A stretch of DNA of 64,000 bases from Eledone cirrhosa (taxonomy: Eukaryota), in assembly GCA_964016885.1 (NCBI GenBank), contig OZ024740.1, forward strand, positions 269,762,001-269,826,000. Direction: 5' to 3'. The notes under the pieces were generated by a model, which did no database searches, had not been told where the DNA came from, and was given only the letters and a program-made list of their open reading frames with translations. Shown in pieces: positions 9,189 through 58,309 of this stretch (positions within the stretch are counted from its first letter, which is position 1; each line of letters begins with the position of its first letter). Both the position numbers and the translations under genes were made by a program.

Positions 9189-9480
9189 ATATATATATAT
9201 ATGTGTATATATATATATATATATACATATGCAAAAGTTTTATTTAAAATTGTTGGGTTACAACAAGTAAATATTTTATAACTGATATAAAGAACTCGAC
9301 AAGTTTTGGGAGTAGATATACGATATTAAACAAATGGAAACTATATTTATAAAACCATATTTATTTCATTATACATATTTCAGGGATACCATATTAAAAA
9401 TATGGCATGCCTTCGTCAGATAAAATACAATATATAACCAGTTCTATAAATAATTTTATAGTTTCTATTTGTTTAATATC

Positions 9481-14262: not shown

Positions 14263-14504
14263 TATTATTATTATTATTATTATTACTGAATGCTATGGTT
14301 GACGGAGGCTCGGCTGTGTAAGGTATTGTAAATTTTGAACGTTATAACAATTGTAAATTGTTTAAAACTTTAACGAACTTCTAGACAAAATCACCCTCCT
14401 CCTCGTGAGAGGGGTCTTTCTGCCCGTTATTTGGACCTTCGGGGTTAAATAACTGCTTATTGGGGTTTTGTGCCCAATATTTATTTTAAACAAAAAAAAA
14501 CAAC

Positions 14505-16282
14505 ATGGCTACGAAAAAGAATTTTCATAGGTCACTCCCACTCATTCCGTCTTCTTCTTCCTCAATCATCACTACAGCAGAGAGAAGATTGTCTCTCTCC
14601 CTCCCTTCTTTAAATGTGTCTCTCTCCCTTCCTTCTCTTTCGCAAGCGACGACAGAAAAGAAAAGTCTCGTGCAAAGCGTGCAAGATTTCTCCACGACGA
14701 CGACGACAACGACGAAACAGGTGTGTGGGAAATACGAAAACCCATTTCATTCGTCTGAAGTCAGGAATAATAGCAGTAGCAGCCGTAATAACAACAGCAA
14801 CAGTGACAATGAAAACAACAGTAGCAGCCGCAACAGCATCACCAGCAGCATAAACAACAACAGCATTAGCAGCAGCAACACCAACAACAACCACAGCAAC
14901 AGCGGCGGAGGCAGTAGTCGTAGTACCTGCAGCAACAACAAAAGTAACAGCAGCTCTGACGATAACAACAACAACAACAGCAGCAAAGAAAAACCAATCT
15001 CATTTGCAGGTATTGCGAAGAACCTGGAAACAATCCTCATAACAAATGAGGAATTAGAGGAAGCGAAGAAGATGGTGACAAAGACTGGACACCGAGCAAT
15101 CTGCAAGGCAGCGGAAAATTTTTTCGAAATCCAACAGCACTGTACGGTCACGTACCGTACAGTAAGTACAAAATCCCGTAGGGTTGAAAGAGCCACAGAG
15201 GCTCAAATACAAAAAGCCTTGGGGTCTGTGTGGCAGCGGAAAACGCACATCACCCGAGGCAAAAAATATGCCACCGTAGTCGTACTTTTTGCCACACCCC
15301 AGGAGGCAAAGGCTCAATCCGTAGTGACCCTAAGGAGCGAGGAAATGGTGTTGGTGCCCTCCTACGGCGGGCAAAAAATTGTGAGGGTTAAACTGACCCA
15401 CGTCCCCCCTGGGATGGCCCCTTCTTGGCTGGCCGCGTCTGTCCTCGTCGGAATCGAGGACAAAACAACTGTACTGCAAGTACAGAAAAAAGTAAGAGAA
15501 GATTGGGTCGGCACCTCCATTGAGATGCTAATCCAAACCAACCAGGAGTGCATCGAAGCTATCCCGGATGTGATAGACTTCGATAACGGCACTCAACTGC
15601 CCATAAGTGTTGAGGGTAAACGCCCGAAATGCTTTCGCTGTGGATCGAAGACTCACCTCAGGGCCTTCTGCAACGAGAAGACCCTGAGAAAGGAGAAATG
15701 CCCCTCCTCCCGAAACCGGCTCCACGGCTACCAGCAACAGGACAAGCGGCAACCAGGAACGATAGGTCCGTGGCACCCATACCCACGCCACGGAAATCAA
15801 AAACAGCAGCAGCAGTGGAAATATTAACAACAACAACAGCAATACCAAATGCAGCTACAACAGAGACTCCAGTGCAAACATCACCAACAACAACAAGTGA
15901 AAGAGTGGAGCTGGTACCCCTCCCCGACCTCACAGAATCAGACATGGAGTGTGAGGTGGGAGAGGGATGGCAAAAGGTCGTAAGAAGGCACAAACGCAGA
16001 AGCAGCGTATCGTCGCCTTTGAAAAGGGAGGAAAGAAATGAGAAAAGGGTAAAGTCTACTGCAAAGAGACTCACAGCAGCAACACCACCAACACCATCAC
16101 CACCCACACTAGCACCACCGTCACCACAGGCGACAACCCCACCGCCAACAACACCTTCAACACCACCACCACAAGCACCAACATCGCAAACACAACAACA
16201 AAACACACACACACCCAGCAACAACGACAAGAAAATAGCAAAACCACACCGCACCCCAAGAAAAACAAATGCACGGCAATAA
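14505..16282 (+). CDS. LINE ORF1, nucleic-acid-binding gag-like protein (probable frameshift near 15690)
   Basis: 440-aa ORF with CFRCGSKTHLRAFC knuckle; the overlapping frame continues with a P/T-rich tail and GWQKVVRRHKRR. Confidence 0.8.
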
Positions 16283-16646
16283 ATACACACAACAAGAAAC
16301 TAATGACTTACATAATTGAACACACAGACATTTCACAACACGACTACATAATACCAGCACCAATCAAAACGTCAACTAACATAAGACTGCTAAAAATAGC
16401 ACAGAAACAATACACAAACATTAAAACGAAATTCCCCAACGCAGTTGGTGATTTCAGGGACCTAGGAGGAACTATCAATCGAAGAGTATATTCGGACATA
16501 CTCATAGAAGAGCCGATGACCAGCCGAAGGGACGATTCAACGGTCCCTTCACCAGACGATCAAGTGAAAAGGGATGTAAAAACCATCCCTCCTCTAGGAA
16601 AAGTACGGTAAGTGGTCTTTCCCATCTTTTCCGCTCTATTTTAAAC

Positions 16647-19600
16647 ATGACCTCACTCAGAATAAGCAGCATAAATGCGCGTGGCTTGGGGTCGTCATGG
16701 AAGCAGGGTCACCTGCTCAACGACCTCAGGTCACTAAACATAGATGTAGTGGCCATCAGCGAGACCAGAATCTCCGAAGCACGGGCCTTCGCACCGATCT
16801 TCGGCGGCTACGATGTGTACGCATCTTCCAGCCGTCCTGGATCGGGGGGAGGAGTTGCTGTGCTTTTTCGGAGAGGTTTGGATCTCGCCATACGGGCCAT
16901 CTTCCTGGACCCAGAGGGTAAGCTGGTGGTGCTGGACGTGACCAGCGGAGACGGGCAAGCGTTCAGGCTAGTGGCCGTCTATGCCCCGACAGGAGCAGGT
17001 CGGCCTGATTTCTTCCGGCGTCTGGAGACCTTTCTTGGAACGTCCCGCTCTTTAGTGTTAGTGGGCGACTGGAACGGGATCTTAGATGCACGCTGGGACT
17101 GTGTGGGATTAGCGGATAGGGGTGGAGGGTGCAAGGGCCTCACCAACCTGCTCAGGCGTTTTGAACTGTCTGACAGGTACCGATTGGAATTCTCGAATGT
17201 GCCAATGTGGACTTGGAAAAATCGCATAGGGTCATCCAGATCATATCTAGATATAGTATTTTGTAGGGAAATAGATAGGTCTAGTATAGGCTGTCCACAA
17301 TTCAAGATAGTCAGCTACACGGACCACAAATTCGTGATCTGTGTGCTTGACTTAGATAGGCTTCATAGACGAGGACCCGGCTACTGGAACTAAACGCGTC
17401 CTTACCAGCGCGCAAGGCCTACAGAGACCGGATTAGCGAACTAATTAAGCGGGCGTTGACGGGGGCCATCGTCAACAACAAGTGGTGGTTTGCTCTGAAA
17501 AGAGCGATTAGAATAGAATCCATTAGGTTTAGTAAGGCTTTAGCAATAGAGAAAAATAGAGCAGAGGGAGAACTAGTTAGAAAATTAGACGAGGTGCTTA
17601 GCAAAGGCATTGCGACCGACGTACTTGCGGCGAAATTGGCCCTTGACCAATTCTTCAATGCAAAGCAGAAGGCTGCGTTGTCAGAGCAAGGGTGCGTGCT
17701 CTCAGACACGAGGGGACGAAAGCCGTTCAATGGGCCCGAGTGGCGGAGGCGCGTCGTGGCAACAAAGCCACGATACGGTCTTTGGTGGACCACGACGGGC
17801 GCATGCTACTCGATCCCGGGCAAATGTGTGAAGTTTTTCAGCGACACTTCGCTCAGCTGTTCGGGGGCAGCGGTGGGCCGGTTCGAGGCATGGACTTTAG
17901 TGTCTACCTCGACGGACTGCGGCGGCTCTCGGCCACTGAGGCGAAGTGTTGCGAAAAGCCGATAACAGCCGCTGAAGTAAGGGAGGCAATGACTGGCTGC
18001 ACAAGGGGTAAATCGCCTGGTTTGGATGGTCTGCCCTATGACTTTACGTACAGATGCCAGACTTGTTCGGAGGCCTCTTGGCGGACGTCTACTGCAACTG
18101 GCAACAGAACGGGAGAATTCCCAGCTCTGTGAGCCGAGGAGCGGTGGCACTGCTGAGAAAGGATCCGAACAAGGGGGATAACATAGATAATTTCCGGCCC
18201 ATAACTCTGCTAAACACAGAGTTCAAGATTTTGGCCAAGGTGCTAGCAAAGAGGTTGGCGCTTGTCGTTGGTGGTCTGGTGGGAGAGGCGCAGACATGCG
18301 CCATTCCCGACAGATCCATCCACGACAACCTCCACCTCATGCGATACATCGTAGAGAGGGTAGCTAGGGAACCTGGCACGGGTGGGTCTTTGATCAATTT
18401 AGATCAGTCGAAGGCTTTCGATAGGGTCGACCATCGTTACCTAGCGGCAGTCCTGAGGGCGGCTGGCTTTGGGCCCGTCTTCAGAGGCTGGATCGCTGCC
18501 ATGCACAGCGACATCTGTTCTGTGGTGAGAGTGAACGGTCACCTGTCGGAACCGTTGAACATCATGCGCTCGGTCCGCCAAGGATGTCCCCTCTCGTCCC
18601 TCTTGTACGTATTGACTCTCGAGCCATTACTGCACAAATTGGAGACGTTGAGGGGCATCCCGCGCGAACTAGGATGCGGAAGAACCGTGTCAGCATATGC
18701 GGACGATGTCACCGTAGTGGTGTCGAACGCCAAACACATCGAGGCGATCGGCACTACACTAAGAGAATACGAAGCGGTGACAGGAGCAATGATCAACCAG
18801 GAAAAGTCAGTGGGCCTGCAGCTCGGCACCTGGAGAGGCAGGTCCATGCCGTCCAACAGCGTCGTCGGACGCTGGACGGACGGACCGGTTAAATTGTTAG
18901 GGGTCTGGTTCGGTCCGGACCTCCAGACGGACAAAAACTGGGACGAGGTGACGAGCAGGGTGGCTTCTCTCACCCAGAAATGGGCGGAGAGGAAGCTATC
19001 CCTGAAAGGTCGAGCGGAGGTGGCTAACGCGTACATCGCGTCTGTCATCTGCTACCGCCTGACCGTCGTACCTTGTCCTAAGCCTCGCCTGACTGCGCTG
19101 GAGCGTTTGTTCTTTCGCTTTTTGTGGAAGGGACGCGCTCCGATGGTCAGGCGGTCCATCTGTTGTCAACACCCGCTACGTGGAGGGCTGGGCATGCCGT
19201 GGCTGATGATGCGCAGGCACGCGCTCAGGCTACGACATCTCCACCTCTTCCTCGACGGTGATCAGGTGTGGTCGCCGTTTGCTAGACACGTATTTCCCCA
19301 GCTCGTTTCCTTGACGGAGCTGCAGTCCTGGGTCAAGCGAAGTCCGAGAGGGAGCGCCTGGAGACTGGAATGTCTTCAGGCGCTCACAGCCCTCGACCAA
19401 TCGGGCAATGTGATCGGTGGAAACTCCACCTCGGCGTTCTATAGAGGATTAGTGGAGGGGAAGAGCGACGACGTACTTGGGGAAACTCTAGGCGTCGACG
19501 AAAATCAACTAGCCAATCTCTTCGGAAGAACTTTCGGGCCTGGGCCTATGGACAACTTCCAGAAATCTCTGGCCTGGCAGTGCTACCGAGGAGCCTTGCC

Positions 19601-20063
19601 AGTTCGGGATAAACTCTACAGGCATGGAGGTGCCGTCAGCCGGGCATGTCCGAGATGCGCGCAGGGCGACGAAACCGTCCTGCACGCACTCGTCCAGTGT
19701 CCGAAAATTGCTGACTTGTGGGTTTATGTCGAACACCTGCTGTCGCGTTTAGGACGGATCCGGCTATCATCTGAGTCCATCGTGAGGATTGCCCCGCCCT
19801 CCTCCTTTAGCCGGGAAGGGCAGGCAGTTTTTATCTGTCTGGTGGCCATGGCGAAAGAGATAGTATGGTGGACACGTTTGAAAGGGCTGAAGACGAGCAC
19901 TTACCTCTTCGGTGATGCTCTGATTGACTTTTTCAAATTTCATTTGAAAAGGAAAATCAGAGTAAAGAGGGAAGTGCACTCTTCCCAGCATTTTGTTGAA
20001 AGATGGGTGAGAGAAGCAAGAATGGCCCGAGTGAATGGGCCTACTCTGAGTATATATCTGTAA
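16647..20063 (+). pseudogene. LINE ORF2: AP endonuclease, reverse transcriptase and C-terminal zinc finger, broken by ~3 frameshifts (~17390, ~17670, ~18040)
   Basis: SINARGL, ISET, VYAP, GDWN, YLD, TDH, GYW(K)LN; KSPGLDGLP; FRPITLLN, DQSKAFD, VRQGCPLS, AYADD; CPRC..ET..H.L..C. Confidence 0.93.
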
Positions 20064-20459: not shown

Positions 20460-20930
20460 ATATATGGAGAATAGAAATGGCTGTGTAGTTGCTATTTAAG
20501 GTAACTTAAAATGCAGTGAGAATACGAAGACAGCAATAACAGGAGTGAGTTTTCCTCATCAGTTGTCCACTGGGGGTCTAGGATATGTCTACGCTTTAAA
20601 GACAAGATTCCACTTCACCCCAGGGCGTCAATAACTGGATAAGTTATTGAGAAAACGAAGGAAGGTGAAGGAAATAAAAGGGGAAGAAAAGAGAAACAGT
20701 AACAAAACAACGAAAAAAAACACAAACCGAGCAACGTGCGAGCAACTATAGATGGGAAATCCAAGACTACTCGACAATAGAACTTAAGTTCGAGACCGAG
20801 TAATCGAGAGAAAGAAGACACACGTCTGATGGCCGCAATTGTAAGTGAGAAGAGAACCGCTAAACGGTCAGACGAGGGGGTGAAAGTGAGAGGGAGAAAG
20901 GAAGAGGGGGAAAGTGGGGTATACATATAA
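20460..20930 (-). mobile_element. Divergent member of the non-coding pyrimidine-rich retrozyme-like family
   Basis: CT-rich body on the minus strand followed by the permuted hammerhead-like motif; flanked by (TA)n-rich sequence. Confidence 0.65.
20549..20656 (-). ncRNA. Permuted, pseudoknotted hammerhead-like motif (divergent copy, GAAA mutated to GACA)
   Basis: gttttct caataact..agttattg acgc c ctggggt gaagt ggaat C ttgtct ttaaa gcgt a GAC atatcc taga cccccag t ggacaa CTGATGA ggaaaac. The family's helices are retained with different sequence; helix E is imperfect. Confidence 0.7.
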
Positions 20931-30751: not shown

Positions 30752-31255
<504 letters not shown>

Positions 31256-38114: not shown

Positions 38115-39325
38115 TATAACTGTTTCTACTTTAGGCACAAGGCCAGCAATTTCTCAGTGCATTACTGGTACTTTATTTATCGACCCCCCGTAAGGATGAA
38201 AGGCAAAGTTAACCTCGGTGGGATTTGAACTCAAAACGTAACGGGCCATAACTTTATGCTGCAAAGCAGTAATGATGTGCAATAAAAATAATTGTTTCTA
38301 CTTTAGAGACAAGGCCAGCAATTGCCCAGTGCATTACTGGTACTTTATTTTATCGACCCCGTAAGGATGAAAGGCAAAGTTAACCTCGGCGGGATTTGAA
38401 CTCAAAACGTAACGGGCCATAGCTTTATGCTGCAAAGCAGTAATGATGTGCAATAAAGATAATTGTTGCTACTATTGGCACAAGGCCAGCAATTACCCAG
38501 TGCATTACTGGTACTTTATTTTATCAACCCCCGTAAGGATGAAAGGCAAAGTTAACCTCGGCGGGATTTGAACTCAAACGTAACGGGCCATAACTTTATG
38601 CTGCAAAGCAGTAATGATGTACAATAAAAATAATTGTTTCTACTTTTGGCACAAGGCCAGCAATTTCCCAGTACATTACTGGTACTTTATTTTATCGACC
38701 CCGTAAGGATGAAAGGCAAAGTTAACCTCGGCGGGATTTGAACTCAAAACGTAACGGGCCATAACTTTATGCTGCAAAGCAGTAATGATGTACAACAAAA
38801 ATAATTGTTTCTACTTTTGGCACAAGGCCAGCAATTTCCCAGTGCATAACTGGTACTTTATTTTATCGACCCCGTAAGGATGAAAGGCAAAGTTAACCTC
38901 GGCGGGATTTGAACTCAAAACGTAACGGGCCATAACTTTATGCTGCAAAGCAGTAATGATGTGCAATAAAAATAATTGTTTCTACTTTTGGCACAAGGCC
39001 AGCAATTGCCCAGTGCATAACTGGTACTTTATTTTATCAACCCCCGTAAGGATGAAAGGCAAAGTTAAGCTCGGCGGGATTTGAACTCAGACCGTAAAGG
39101 GACGTAACTATGCAATAAAAATAATAATAGTAATAATTGTTTCTACTTTTGGCACAAGGCCAGCAATTACCCCAGTGTATTACTGGTACTTTATTTTATC
39201 GATCCTGTAAGGATGAAAGGCAAAGTTAACCTGGGCGGGATTTGAACTCAGATCATAAAGGCACGCAACTCTATAATGGAAAGCATGGCGTCCAACCCTC
39301 TACCGATACAACCAAACCACCACCC
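38115..39325 (-). repeat. Head-to-tail array of ~7 SINE family 1 units (~171-bp period)
   Basis: TGTTTCTACTTT..GGCACAAGGCC recurs at about 38121, 38293, 38464, 38635, 38806, 38977 and 39139. Confidence 0.9.
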
Positions 39326-39344
39326 TTCCACTATTAATGATAAG

Positions 39345-40555
39345 GGCGGTGTATTGGCATGGCAGTATCGGTAGAGGGTCGGACGCTATGCTTTGCAACA
39401 TAGAGTTACGCACCTTTACGGTCTGAGTTCAAATCCCACCGAGGTTAACTTTGCCTTTCACCTTTCCGGGGTCGATAAAATAAAGTACCAGTCACGCACT
39501 GGGGTAGATTTAATCGGCTTTCCTCTCCCATAAAATTGCTGGCCTTGTGCCTGTACTAAAATAAAGTACCAGTAATGCACTGGTTAATTGCTGGCCTTGT
39601 GCCTAAAGTAGAAACAATTATTAGTGTTTTCTGATTTAGGTACAGTGTTGCGAGGTGGGGGGAGGGGGGACGATTATAGCAAGCCATTGTGTTACTGGTA
39701 CTTTATTTTATTGAGCCCTGTAAAGATGAAAGGCAAAGCTAACATCGACAAGATTTGAACTCAGAAGGTAAAGAGCCGTAACTATATGCCGCAAAGCATG
39801 TTGTCCGACGCTCTATTGATACTGCCAATCCACTGCCCTAATAATAATAATAGTAATAATAAAAAAAAAAAAACATAACCAGAACCTCAGAATTTAAAGT
39901 TATATACTGCATACAAAAAATAGCACTACTAGGCACTGCACACGAATTATGAAAAGTACTATTAATACAATAGAAAGAACACCAGCAAAATCTATACTGC
40001 TCGTACCCAAGGCGCACAGAGCTGTGCTCGGTAAAGCAGTAATGATGTGCAATAAAGATAATAATAACAATAATGTTTATACTTTTGCTACAAGGCCAGC
40101 AATTACTCCCGTGCATTACTGGTGCTTTATACTATCGACCCCGCAATGATAACAGGCAAAACTAACCTCGGCGGGATTTGAACTCAGAACGCAAAGGGCC
40201 ATAACTTTATGCTGCAAAGGAGTAACGACGTGCAATAAAAATAATAATAGTAATAATTGTTTCTACTTTTGACACAAGGCCAGCAATTATCCCAGTGTAT
40301 TACTGGTACTTTATTTTATCGACCCCGTAAGGATGAAAGGCAAAGTTAACCTCGGCGGGATTTGAATTCAGACAATAACGGGCCGTAATTCTGTGCTTCA
40401 AAGCATGGCGTCCGACCCTCTACCGATACTGCCAATCCACCAGTAATAATGTTTCTATTTTTGGCACAAGGCCAGCATTTACCTCAGTGTATTACTGGTG
40501 CTTTATTTTATCGACCCAGTGAGGATGAAACGCAAAGTTAATCTCGGTGGGATTT
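39345..40555. mobile_element. Cluster of SINE family 1 copies in both orientations
   Basis: Multiple consensus matches. Confidence 0.8.
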
Positions 40556-51269: not shown

Positions 51270-51967
51270 CAACTGATGAAGGACCAACTTTATTCATATG
51301 TAACCCATTTGCAACCACGCAGCACGTTTATTCTCATATTTACACATATATTTTCCCCCGCTGTGACCCGTCTATTTCGTTCTTACTGCTTCTTCTTTCT
51401 CTGTATCTTTACCCTCTCTAACAGTCACTCTCTCTGTTAGCCTCTTCCTCACCCTTCACTCACTCACTCTCTGTTACTACCTCTCCTCCTCCTCCTTCTT
51501 CCCGGTTGACCTGTGCGTAATTATTTTCTTTCGCACGCTTGGCCAGCCCGGTTCCCCTTTTTTCTCTCCTCGTCTACGATTTCACAGAACTTATGTTCAC
51601 CGAATTCACAGACTAGACTCCTTCTTCCCCCCGTTTGACCTGTACGGAATTCCTTCCTTGCTCACATTTCAACCAGGTTTGATGGTCTTTATTCTCCCTC
51701 GTTCACGATTTCACCGAACTTATATTCATGGAAATTTGGGACTTGACTCGTTCTTCCTCACTTTTCGTTGCTTCACCATCTTTGTTTGTTTACACTCTGT
51801 TCCCTTTATTTACGTGTCCTAACGACTTTCTTTAGCCGTTGCTCGCACCAACCAGAGGTATATGGTCTTTAAAGCGAAGAAATACCGAGGATGGTTGGAA
51901 GATCACTGATGAAGGACCAACTTTATTCATATGTAACCCATTTGCAACCACTCAGCACGTTTTTATT

Positions 51968-51970
<3 letters not shown>
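51270..51970 (+). mobile_element. Retrozyme-like element: partial upstream repeat plus one unit (623-nt spacing between CTGATGA cores)
   Basis: CTGATGAAGGACCAACTTTATTCATATGTAACCCATTTGCAACCAC occurs at 51283 and 51906; non-coding pyrimidine-rich body. Confidence 0.78.
51816..51917 (+). ncRNA. Permuted, pseudoknotted hammerhead-like motif with kink-turn consensus
   Basis: gtcct aacgac..gccgtt gc tcgc a ccaacca GA ggtat A tggtctt taaa gcga a GAA atacc gag GA tggttgg aagatca CTGATGA aggac. Confidence 0.8.
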
Positions 51971-52025
<55 letters not shown>

Positions 52026-52085
52026 TTCGGTTAGCTTTTCCTTCTATGTTGTTTACTTGTCTCACTCGCTTTACGCGTTTCACTT

Positions 52086-52187
52086 GTCCCAATAGCTTAT
52101 TTTAGTTATTGCTCGCACCAACCTGAGGTATATGATTTTTAATGCGATGAAATACCAATGATCGTTGGCAAATCACTGATGAGGGAC
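52086..52187 (+). ncRNA. Permuted, pseudoknotted hammerhead-like motif
   Basis: gtccc aatagc..gttatt gc tcgc a ccaac ctGA ggtat A tgattt ttaat gcga t GAA atacc aat GA tc gttgg c aaatca CTGATGA gggac. Confidence 0.8.
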
Positions 52188-52612
52188 TAATTTTATAATA
52201 TGTAATCCATGTGCAACCATGCAGTATTCTTCTCCCCATGTTTTTCATATATTTACCTAAACTGCGATTATCTGTTTCTCGCTTTCTCTCTTACTGCTCC
52301 CCCGTTCTCTCTGTTTCTCTTACCTTCTTTCGTCCCCTCTGTCAGTTAACACTTTCTCTCGACTGACCTCCTCACGCACTTCCACTCACTCACTCTTTGT
52401 TTCTCCCCTTCTCACTTCCCCCCGTTCGCTAGGAGAGGGATTCTTTCTTTCTCACATCCCAGTCACAGCGAAAGGTTTGTTTCCTGAGCGCCCATGAAAT
52501 TCACCCAGATTATGGTGATCGGATAACCATGTTGCTTGTTTTCCTAACCATCTTCGGTTAGCTTTTCCTTCTACGTTGTTTACTTGTCTCACTCGCTTTA
52601 CGCGTTTCACTT

Positions 52613-52714
52613 GTCCCAATAGCTTATTTTAGTTATTGCTCGCACCAACGTGAGGTATATGATTTTTAATGCGATGAAATACGAATGATGGTTGGCAAAT
52701 CACTGATGAGGGAC
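52613..52714 (+). ncRNA. Permuted, pseudoknotted hammerhead-like motif (second repeat)
   Basis: Same as 52086-52187 with a few substitutions. Confidence 0.78.
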
Positions 52715-53007
52715 TAATTTTATAATATGTAATCCATGTGCAACCATGCAGTATTCTTCTCCCCATGTTTTTCATATATATATATATATATATATTGATA
52801 TATATATATATTGATATATATATATATATTGATATATATATATATATTGATATATATATATATATATATTGATATATATATTGATATATATATATATTGA
52901 TATATATATTGATATATATATATATTGATATATATATATATATATATAAAATATTAAACAAATAATGAATAAACAATGAGACTATTCCTTATATTAAACA
53001 AAAAAAG

Positions 53008-57224: not shown

Positions 57225-58170
57225 TTAATTAGGTTTATAATATTTAAATGTTTTTTTTAGTTTATGATTACACGATATAATTAATTCCTGTCGTTTATTT
57301 AATAAGATATCCTTAGACTTCATTATTTCAAATAGTTCTTGGGAACATAATCTACATTCATTTCTATTATTTTGATAAGGGGTGGCTCTTTTGAGCACAC
57401 TCCAGGTCAAATCATATTCTATATTCTTATTTTTATAACTATTGATTTTTTCTGCTAGAGATGTTGTATTAGCCAGTGCGGCATTTTTAAAACTATGCTT
57501 GTGGGTATTAAACCTTGTCTTAAAATTGTTAGAGGTAGCTCCTATATATGAGCAAATAGAATCTTTAGTTTTAACATTACATTTATAGACTATGTTGTTA
57601 ACAAGACAATTCCCTTTTAATGGGCAGTTTGCTTTGTTTCTACAGTTACATCCTTTCGTTAATTCTGTATTTGAGGAGATATTATGGTTAATTTGATGTA
57701 CTGGTGGTATACTTATGGTTTTCTTACATTTATATGCATTATAGGCACTTATATTTTGTTTTATGTTATTTGTTGTAGAGTATGAGAATTTAACTGTAGA
57801 CCTATTTAAGATTTGATGGTATTTGTGGTTTGGCGGGAAGTTTTTCTCAAGGATATAAAAAAATTTTTTAGCAATATTATCCTTAACTTGTAAATTAAAT
57901 GGAGCATTATACCAAGTAACCCGTCTATTACGGTTTCTATGTTGTTTATTATTTTTATTATTTTTATAGGTTGTATCGTGATTTTTACTAGGAGGATTAA
58001 TGTTAATGATCTCACCACAACCATTTTTAGTTATATTTGTAGATTTAGGTGTTTTAACCTTTTTATTAGGAGTTTTATTATTAATATTTATTAGAGTTGT
58101 ATGATGAGTAGTTTTTTGAGAGTTACTATACTTTATATTAGTGAATTTTTCATTACATATATAGACACCT
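57225..58170 (-). mobile_element. Naiad/Neptune-type Penelope-like linker plus GIY-YIG endonuclease, stop-free but lacking a start codon
   Basis: Manual translation: VTWYNAPFNLQVKDNIAKKF..NFPPNHKY..ILNRSTVKFSYS..GCNCRNKANCPLKGNCLVNNIVYKC..SYIGATSNNFKTRFNTHKHSF..CRLCSQE..LLNKRQE..CNH. Confidence 0.88.
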
Positions 58171-58309
58171 ACCTACATATATAATTTTTCATTACATATA
58201 AGTGAATATAAGTGAATTTTTCATTACATCTCTTCTTTCCATGATATCCGGAATACATTGAGTTCTTCATACGGATTGGACACTACCGTAAACTCTTGGT
58301 AGATTTATT

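Follow-up and report, generated by a model that had tools for sequence, protein, structure and literature searches.

How a hammerhead-like RNA whose core strands stand in scrambled order could fold as a single chain is the question raised by a repeat at 51.8 kb of the window, by which we mean the whole 64,000-nucleotide stretch of the Eledone cirrhosa genome analyzed here (assembly GCA_964016885.1, contig OZ024740.1, positions 269,762,001 to 269,826,000 of the forward strand). The original prediction was that a kink-turn (k-turn) between helices D and E, constant in bulge length and in both of its GA dinucleotides, folds D back towards stems I and II and could render activity sensitive to host 15.5K/L7Ae proteins.

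A Hammerhead Core in S-G-C Order with a Broken Block C

The 51.8-kb copy holds all core letters of a hammerhead (CUGAnGA, GAAA and UH), and its parts run 5' to 3' from helix A through hairpin B, helices C and D, a GA, stem III with the UH, stem I and a URA linker to C', GAAA, stem III', the bulge, a further GA, D', stem I', CUGAnGA and A' (Table 1), with cleavage predicted from the hammerhead consensus between 51862 and 51863. The core blocks stand in the S-G-C order of type-SGC hammerheads (HRIMA-1; Eckert et al. 2023, PMC10085705), with which the RNA also shares a short stem I-to-II linker, a further helix that links stems I and II, and mutually crossing stems. Unlike in type SGC, however, the strands for the stem II 5' side and for the interaction helix precede the cleavage block, an A+B junction interrupts block C, and a k-turn-like loop leads on from the interaction helix to stem III. 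No stem II 5' strand directly follows CUGAnGA, where the available part of the SGC account reports no insertion beyond 1-2 nt (PMC10085705): the stem II expected next to CUGAnGA and GAAA is replaced by a multi-helix junction, in which upstream C is the partner of the strand preceding GAAA, and upstream A that of the strand following CUGAnGA. Because these block C strands pair with two separate upstream strands, the repeat ribozyme likely works like an SGC ribozyme and yet is not a plain member of the type. Helix C abuts GAAA in the LINEs described below and in the older families, through a G-C pair in the LINEs, and the base after CUGAnGA can pair with the one before GAAA (10.1-11.1) in only 184 of 256 places; the canonical G10.1-C11.1 pair beside the core appears not to be kept as such.

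Table 1. Parts of the 51.8-kb ribozyme copy and ribozyme-bearing elements in the window
Feature	Positions	Strand	Remark
Helix A 5' strand	51816..51820	+	Pairs with 51913-51917, closes junction
Hairpin B	51821..51841	+	Directly 3' of A; not clearly present in O2/O3 families
Helix C 5' strand (stem II equivalent)	51843..51846	+	Pairs with 51874-51877
Helix D 5' strand (k-turn NC helix)	51848..51853	+	Analogue of SGC stem I/II interaction helix
K-turn non-bulged strand: 3n, G2n, A1n	51854..51856	+	
Stem III 3' strand (k-turn C helix) with U16.1 and H17	51857..51862	+	
Stem I 5' strand (helix F of the original prediction)	51863..51869	+	
URA linker, then C' strand (stem II 3' side) up to GAAA	51870..51878	+	
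Core G12-A13-A14-A15.1 and stem III 5' strand	51879..51886	+	
K-turn bulged strand: 3-nt bulge, G1b, A2b, 3b	51887..51892	+	
Helix D' strand	51893..51898	+	
Stem I 3' strand	51899..51905	+	D'-to-core spacing 7 nt in 16/16 representatives
Core CUGAUGA	51906..51912	+	
Helix A' strand	51913..51917	+	
F1 non-autonomous element	51270..51970	+	5'-truncated piece plus full unit, period ~630 nt, ends in (TA)n
F2 non-autonomous element	52022..52778	+	Partial tandem, period 527 nt
F2 ribozyme motifs	52086-52187 and 52613-52714	+	
F3 ribozyme motif copy	30996..31096	+	Standard k-turn, 3b·3n U·U, one mutation in C'
F4 ribozyme motif copy	20549..20655	-	3 extra nt on non-bulged strand; core mutations too

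The loops quoted in the original prediction for the copies at 51.8, 52.1 and 31.0 kb read exactly so in the window. In the 51.8-kb copy, D (51848-51853) leads into A51854 at 3n and G51855-A51856, stem III (51857-51861) pairs with 51882-51886, and the bulge (51887-51889) is followed by G51890-A51891, U51892 at 3b and D' (51893-51898), providing for both G1b·A1n and A2b·G2n. The bulge comes after the stem III strand and therefore stem III (formerly E) takes the place of the C-helix and D that of the NC-helix; the reverse polarity, with D as C-helix, is ruled out by the same placement. A box C/D snoRNA reading of UGAUGA plus k-turn was likewise rejected, the k-turn GAs lying outside a box C/D context and the hammerhead context having covarying stems I and III. 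A combined core-plus-k-turn pattern finds three matches in the window versus none in each of 100 shuffles and misses the copy at 52.7 kb because its -1b base is mutated; the window also holds a minus-strand copy at 20.5 kb and, at 51.27 kb, a truncated piece.

The junction itself varies among families. Hairpin B is seemingly absent from the older families O2 (L187, L197, L198, L250-L256) and O3 (L177, L194, L258-L264), so that helix A would lead directly into helix C in a three-way rather than four-way junction. In the H2 family (L326-L355) the hairpin B loop, read by eye, could pair with complementary sequence that follows the core, suggesting an additional pseudoknot in this family.

Non-coding Tandem Repeats Carry the Motif across the Genome

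The four families of the window number 505-1,990 first-look candidates each in the 3.0-Gb genome. A pattern of hammerhead core letters only matches 15,710 places in the genome versus 19 in the control, and a second one, for older diverged families, 816 versus 62. The units are non-coding, ~490-700 nt long, and end ~70 nt past the core in (TA)n; no credible ORF was found in the ribozyme repeat units of the window. Neighboring copies form 54 pairs, of which 39 lie in tandem and 15 head-to-head, with no tail-to-tail pair. Non-coding tandem units that each hold a hammerhead are a feature of non-LTR retrozymes, but the non-circular strand order here is not that of a type I hammerhead. The repeat sequence is also present in contigs, of unspecified kind, from two runs of one sample. 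Searches of viral contigs and of prokaryote genomes gave no match. An Rfam scan of the window returned no hammerhead among the best 150 of 179 matches, those listed being mostly miRNA models on microsatellite-like sequence.

Where the repeats begin bears on processing: by eye, among the first 100 matches listed, only 1 of 17 distinct places has a 5' end that fits the predicted cleavage site, a reading confounded by native TATA microhomology. The 5' truncations are scattered, which is consistent with an uncut or re-ligated template and is no proof of cleavage.

The window holds further mobile sequence. An ORF at 57225-58172 on the minus strand lies beside long TA runs and has no Pfam match; its C terminus we take, from a Penelope-type motif, to be GIY-YIG-like. 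A long two-part, frameshifted non-LTR retrotransposon at 14490-20063 on the plus strand, unrelated to the ribozyme repeat, comprises a gag-like ORF and a reverse transcriptase (RT; PF00078, PF13966), with a region that by motif is presumably AP-endonuclease-like. Another repeat family, at 9419 on the minus strand and in L003, L016, L056 and L097, places CUGAnGA in an AT-rich context and is possibly a minimal Penelope-type hammerhead. Tandem arrays of a SINE-like 160-184-nt unit occupy 38116-40555, with related pieces elsewhere in the window.

Stems Covary and Nested Folds of Young Copies Are Unremarkable

Over 23 natural copies, helices C, D, III and I are paired in 86.9% of 504 cells versus 29.5-45% when slid, and hold 125 both-side changes versus 43 after shuffling, the scored structure having been derived from the same sequences. 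The shuffle control overstates significance because the lineages are related; the rows of H2, H2b and L214, partly misaligned on the 5' side and retained nonetheless, lower the covariation counts. Taken singly, helix C is paired in 77% of cells (both-side changes in 3 of 5 pairs), helix D in 89% (5 of 6), stem III in 91% and stem I in 89% (6 of 6), so that stems I and III flank the core with covariation as in a hammerhead. The sequence of helix C is swapped between LINEs H1 and H2. All 17 folded representatives form the A/A' pairing, with differing sequences, as do the folds of H1 and L214, and hairpin B is clear in 14 of the 17; in H2, helices A and B were read by eye. Nested minimum-energy folds of young copies do not stand out (z -0.5 to -1.1), and in part they join the stem I 5' strand to C' or take other alternatives.

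The Same Architecture Ends Two LINE Families

A metagenome scan gave 17 matches, of which by eye only one, record L214, has the architecture: every helix is present with new sequence, including A, B, C, D and I, whose pairing the search pattern had not required. Its ribozyme overlaps the stop codon of an ORF, the protein of which has 36 homologs, among them RT-bearing proteins and several from fish assemblies; homologs carry PF00078 and PF13966. The same protein has 64 matches in the E. cirrhosa genome, and the 3' ends of the matched LINEs fall into two families, H1 and H2, both of which, found by protein similarity alone, show the whole architecture with different helix sequences. H2 copies are ~80% alike; H1 is a 3.6-kb unit that matches protein P0005 over residues 182-1145, in pieces. 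LINEs of the H1/H2 type are putative members of the Hero clade, and their C-terminal domain is putatively of the restriction-like endonuclease type; Hero-clade elements encode RT, a zinc knuckle and such an endonuclease in one ORF. Either such a LINE or a Penelope-like element may move the non-coding repeats.

At 2 of 19 places the H1 3' end runs straight into the element's own 5' start. In L218-L236 and L288 (G000:C2:317445000-317454900) a 5'-truncated H1 3' piece lies directly before a full 3.6-kb unit, and L236 has the same junction, a pseudo-LTR-like layout unexpected for a non-Penelope LINE.

The K-Turn Loop Is Conserved but Not Invariant

A survey of further copies bears out the loop: of the 14,560 young places that match the core, 13,019 keep GA, 3-nt bulge and GA, with 1 and 0 matches for the reversed-pattern controls, although this figure mostly reflects amplification, the copies being recent and nearly identical (best matches 93-100% alike). 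The ~97% retention per k-turn letter in young places can be explained by such recent amplification alone.

Greater weight falls on a comparison of 15 lineages that were found without requiring the GAs, are defined by clustering and are phylogenetically non-independent; L214, whose GAs the search pattern had required, stands outside this count, and O3 and H2 are called from family majorities, their single representatives being decayed (2n = A). A standard k-turn occurs in nine lineages (F1, F2, F3, F5, F6, F7, F9, O3 and H2), three change at 2n only (U in F8 and O1, A in LINE H1), and three depart from consensus: F4, the 20.5-kb family, in which 3 extra nt on the non-bulged strand give a symmetric 6x6 loop; O1b, with Watson-Crick pairs around a plain 3-nt bulge and 1n = C in three of five copies; and O2, with a 1-nt bulge and without the bulge-side GA. 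That GA is the family majority in 14 of the 15 lineages. Among 16 representatives stem III is fully paired in all, -1b/-1n is C-G in 15, and the bulge, in the chosen register, measures 3 nt in all save O2; in the H2 LINE the loop letters are held by most copies (G2n 27/30, A1n 29/30, G1b 24/30, A2b 30/30).

The proposed fit to the k-turn consensus is thus supported, as far as sequence can tell, by near-fixed G1b, A2b and A1n, and the bulge letters vary among lineage representatives as claimed; the supposed constancy of bulge length and of both GAs breaks down at the family level, where G2n changes to U or A and F4, O1b and O2 go their own way. Known k-turns share the 3-nt bulge, the C-helix, G1b·A1n and A2b·G2n (Kt-7, box C/D, U4; PMC5061560), and likewise C-G at -1b/-1n and the variants 2n = U and 2n = A, which occur in natural folded k-turns of the Kt-23 type (PMC2790904, PMC3985660). 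In the SAM-I k-turn A1nC abolishes function, and tertiary context rescues G2nA (PMC5061560). These precedents support the view that variation in the loop follows known k-turn tolerances, 2n being the tolerated position. The comparison confirms the k-turn motif as a conserved but not invariant sequence feature of this hammerhead variant, and the D/stem III loop likely forms a sharp kink-turn bend. Standard k-turns have a kink of about 50 degrees with cross-strand A-minor contacts; the putative k-turn here differs from them in that its C-helix is a ribozyme core stem and in its three off-consensus lineages.

A Rough Geometric Sketch Favors a Sharp Bend

Helix D is connected at its far end, by 0-2 nt, to the tops of stems I and II, and at its near end to the base of stem III. 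The D'-to-core distance does not vary (Table 1), and the NC arm is 9 nt by chosen register in 15 of 16 representatives, one nt longer in F7. A trigonometric sketch at 2.8 A per pair, rough and not a structural model, puts the helix-end axes ~28-32, 44-49 and 54-59 A apart for kinks of 50, 90 and 120 degrees, respectively. With linkers of 0-2 nt only a sharp bend comes near reach, since backbone offsets and a short linker bridge only 28-32 A; and even at 50 degrees the ~30 A between axes makes the monomer tight. The rough sketch says, then, that a monomeric fold would need a sharp bend, and an architectural role for the k-turn is plausible. To this extent the proposal that a kink folds D back is supported; that the k-turn is essential is unsupported because F4, O1b and O2 amplified without a consensus one, and either the requirement for a sharp bend is not absolute or these lineages work differently.

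The three amplified exceptions, with their symmetric loop, plain 3-nt bulge or 1-nt bulge, would sit well with an active permuted hammerhead whose loop is a flexible asymmetric hinge, or which forms a domain-swapped dimer between tandem units, in neither case with k-turn geometry; so would the tight monomer geometry and the frequent tandem arrangement, and dimeric cleavage of retroelement hammerheads is known, to judge from a title cited in PMC10085705. We nevertheless consider this unlikely: against it stand G·A mismatches kept in 12 of 15 lineages while adjoining helix letters turn over, change at just the position (2n) that natural k-turns tolerate, and constant spacer lengths, such as a rigid monomer would have.

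Protein Dependence Is Not Indicated

The 3b·3n pair is U·G in the F1 majority and in H1, C·U or C·A in F4, F5, F6, O1 and L214, and U·U, a box C/D-like combination, in F2, F3, F7, F8, F9 and O3, with A·A among other lineages. Rules measured on standard k-turns class U·G and C·U or C·A as folding in Mg2+ alone (PMC5061560), and the four rules used do not cover U·U or A·A. Because the pairs are so mixed, dependence on L7Ae/15.5K is unsupported, and the sensitivity to these proteins that had been envisaged does not extend to the motif in general; binding of an L7Ae-family protein to the k-turn is possible, and dependence on one is not indicated by the sequences.

A protein-gated switch, in which 15.5K/L7Ae-family binding folds or blocks the ribozyme and the host thereby controls retroelement RNA processing, seems to us decidedly unlikely. 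It would draw on the six U·U lineages, on the need of box C/D k-turns for protein to fold (PMC5061560), and on the helper protein that Eckert et al. suggest for slow SGC ribozymes (PMC10085705). Set against it are the Mg2+-only class of the other lineages' U·G and C·N pairs, the replacement in F8, O1 and H1 of G2n, which L7Ae contacts, and the capacity of tertiary contacts alone to fold an impaired k-turn (PMC5061560).

Discussion

We consider it probable, with real room for doubt, that the repeat encodes a scrambled S-G-C hammerhead core in which a k-turn folds helix D back and so allows a predicted self-cleaving monomer. Helix C would stack on the core as stem II, while helices A and B would form the junction after CUGAnGA, the open end of which would carry the rest of the element. 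The k-turn would turn D back along the ribozyme and bring its distal end to the top ends of stems I and II, and the scrambled strands could thereby fold as a monomer, with Mg2+ and tertiary contacts as the main driving force in place of an L7Ae-type protein. Cleavage after H17 would then cut multimeric transcripts to unit length, and the unit-length RNA, probably circularized, would be reverse-transcribed with priming at TA runs, which would yield partial tandems at (TA)n, fixed 3' ends and intact ribozymes.

That the structure is instead a non-catalytic, hammerhead-derived 3' recognition element for the retrotransposon protein, no longer cleaving, agrees with its position at LINE 3' ends, with genomic copies intact across the predicted cut, and with the split block C and irregular 10.1-11.1 pair, but is very improbable given that all lineages compared retain the UH triplet and the catalytic residues, that core position 7 varies (U/C/G/A) as in active hammerheads, and that H17 is A, C or U and never G in 16 representatives, again as in active ones.

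A self-cleaving monomer of this kind would have several near relatives. Metazoan non-LTR retrozymes (PMC7229834; bioRxiv 10.64898/2026.07.22.740005) are likewise non-coding low-GC tandems present in thousands of copies, each unit bearing a single hammerhead; theirs, however, are type I hammerheads in ~170-450 nt units tied to Penelope-like elements (PMC7229834), whereas the form here is permuted, its units are ~490-700 nt, and it is common to a putative endonuclease-coding LINE. Non-LTR retrozymes are expressed as both linear and circular RNA. Penelope-like elements, Naiad included, also form partial tandems with inverted 5'-truncated neighbors at (TA)n targets and bear a ribozyme near the 3' end (PMC8557442), but the autonomous elements here encode RT and a putative restriction-like endonuclease rather than GIY-YIG. 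The tandem and head-to-head arrangement is the one described for Penelope-like insertions (PMC8557442) and for retrozymes (PMC7229834; bioRxiv 10.64898/2026.07.22.740005). The PK hammerhead is another compact pseudoknotted variant, which differs by its pistol-like connectivity; the available portion of its description mentions neither permutation nor k-turn nor four-way (PMC11300833). SGC ribozymes, for their part, were found only in metatranscriptomes (PMC10085705), whereas this one resides in an animal genome. In the open literature that was searched, we found neither a permuted retrotransposon hammerhead with a kink turn nor a hammerhead in a Hero non-LTR retrotransposon.

Eckert et al. leave open how the interaction helix connects to stem III in SGC ribozymes, and kinks and k-turns are absent from the available part of their account (PMC10085705). 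The k-turn is a candidate answer, for which the natural variants provide ready-made tests; if true, it shows how the two helices can join. A small RNA with a possible L7Ae handle would be useful for engineering too. Because the arrangement is not among the listed Rfam matches and type I descriptors would skip it, other animal genomes may hide many more.

More tentatively, and on balance with slightly more doubt than confidence, we suggest that a widespread clade of animal LINEs, together with its non-coding passengers, has as its standard 3' element this arrangement, which none of the six block permutations covers and in which a k-turn closes the fold and an inserted junction opens it. If so, such LINEs would move via self-cleaved, circular or multimeric RNA in place of an ordinary linear transcript. 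A 3'-terminal hammerhead in an endonuclease-coding LINE that forms partial tandems would also link LINE biology to the circle route of retrozymes and Penelope elements.
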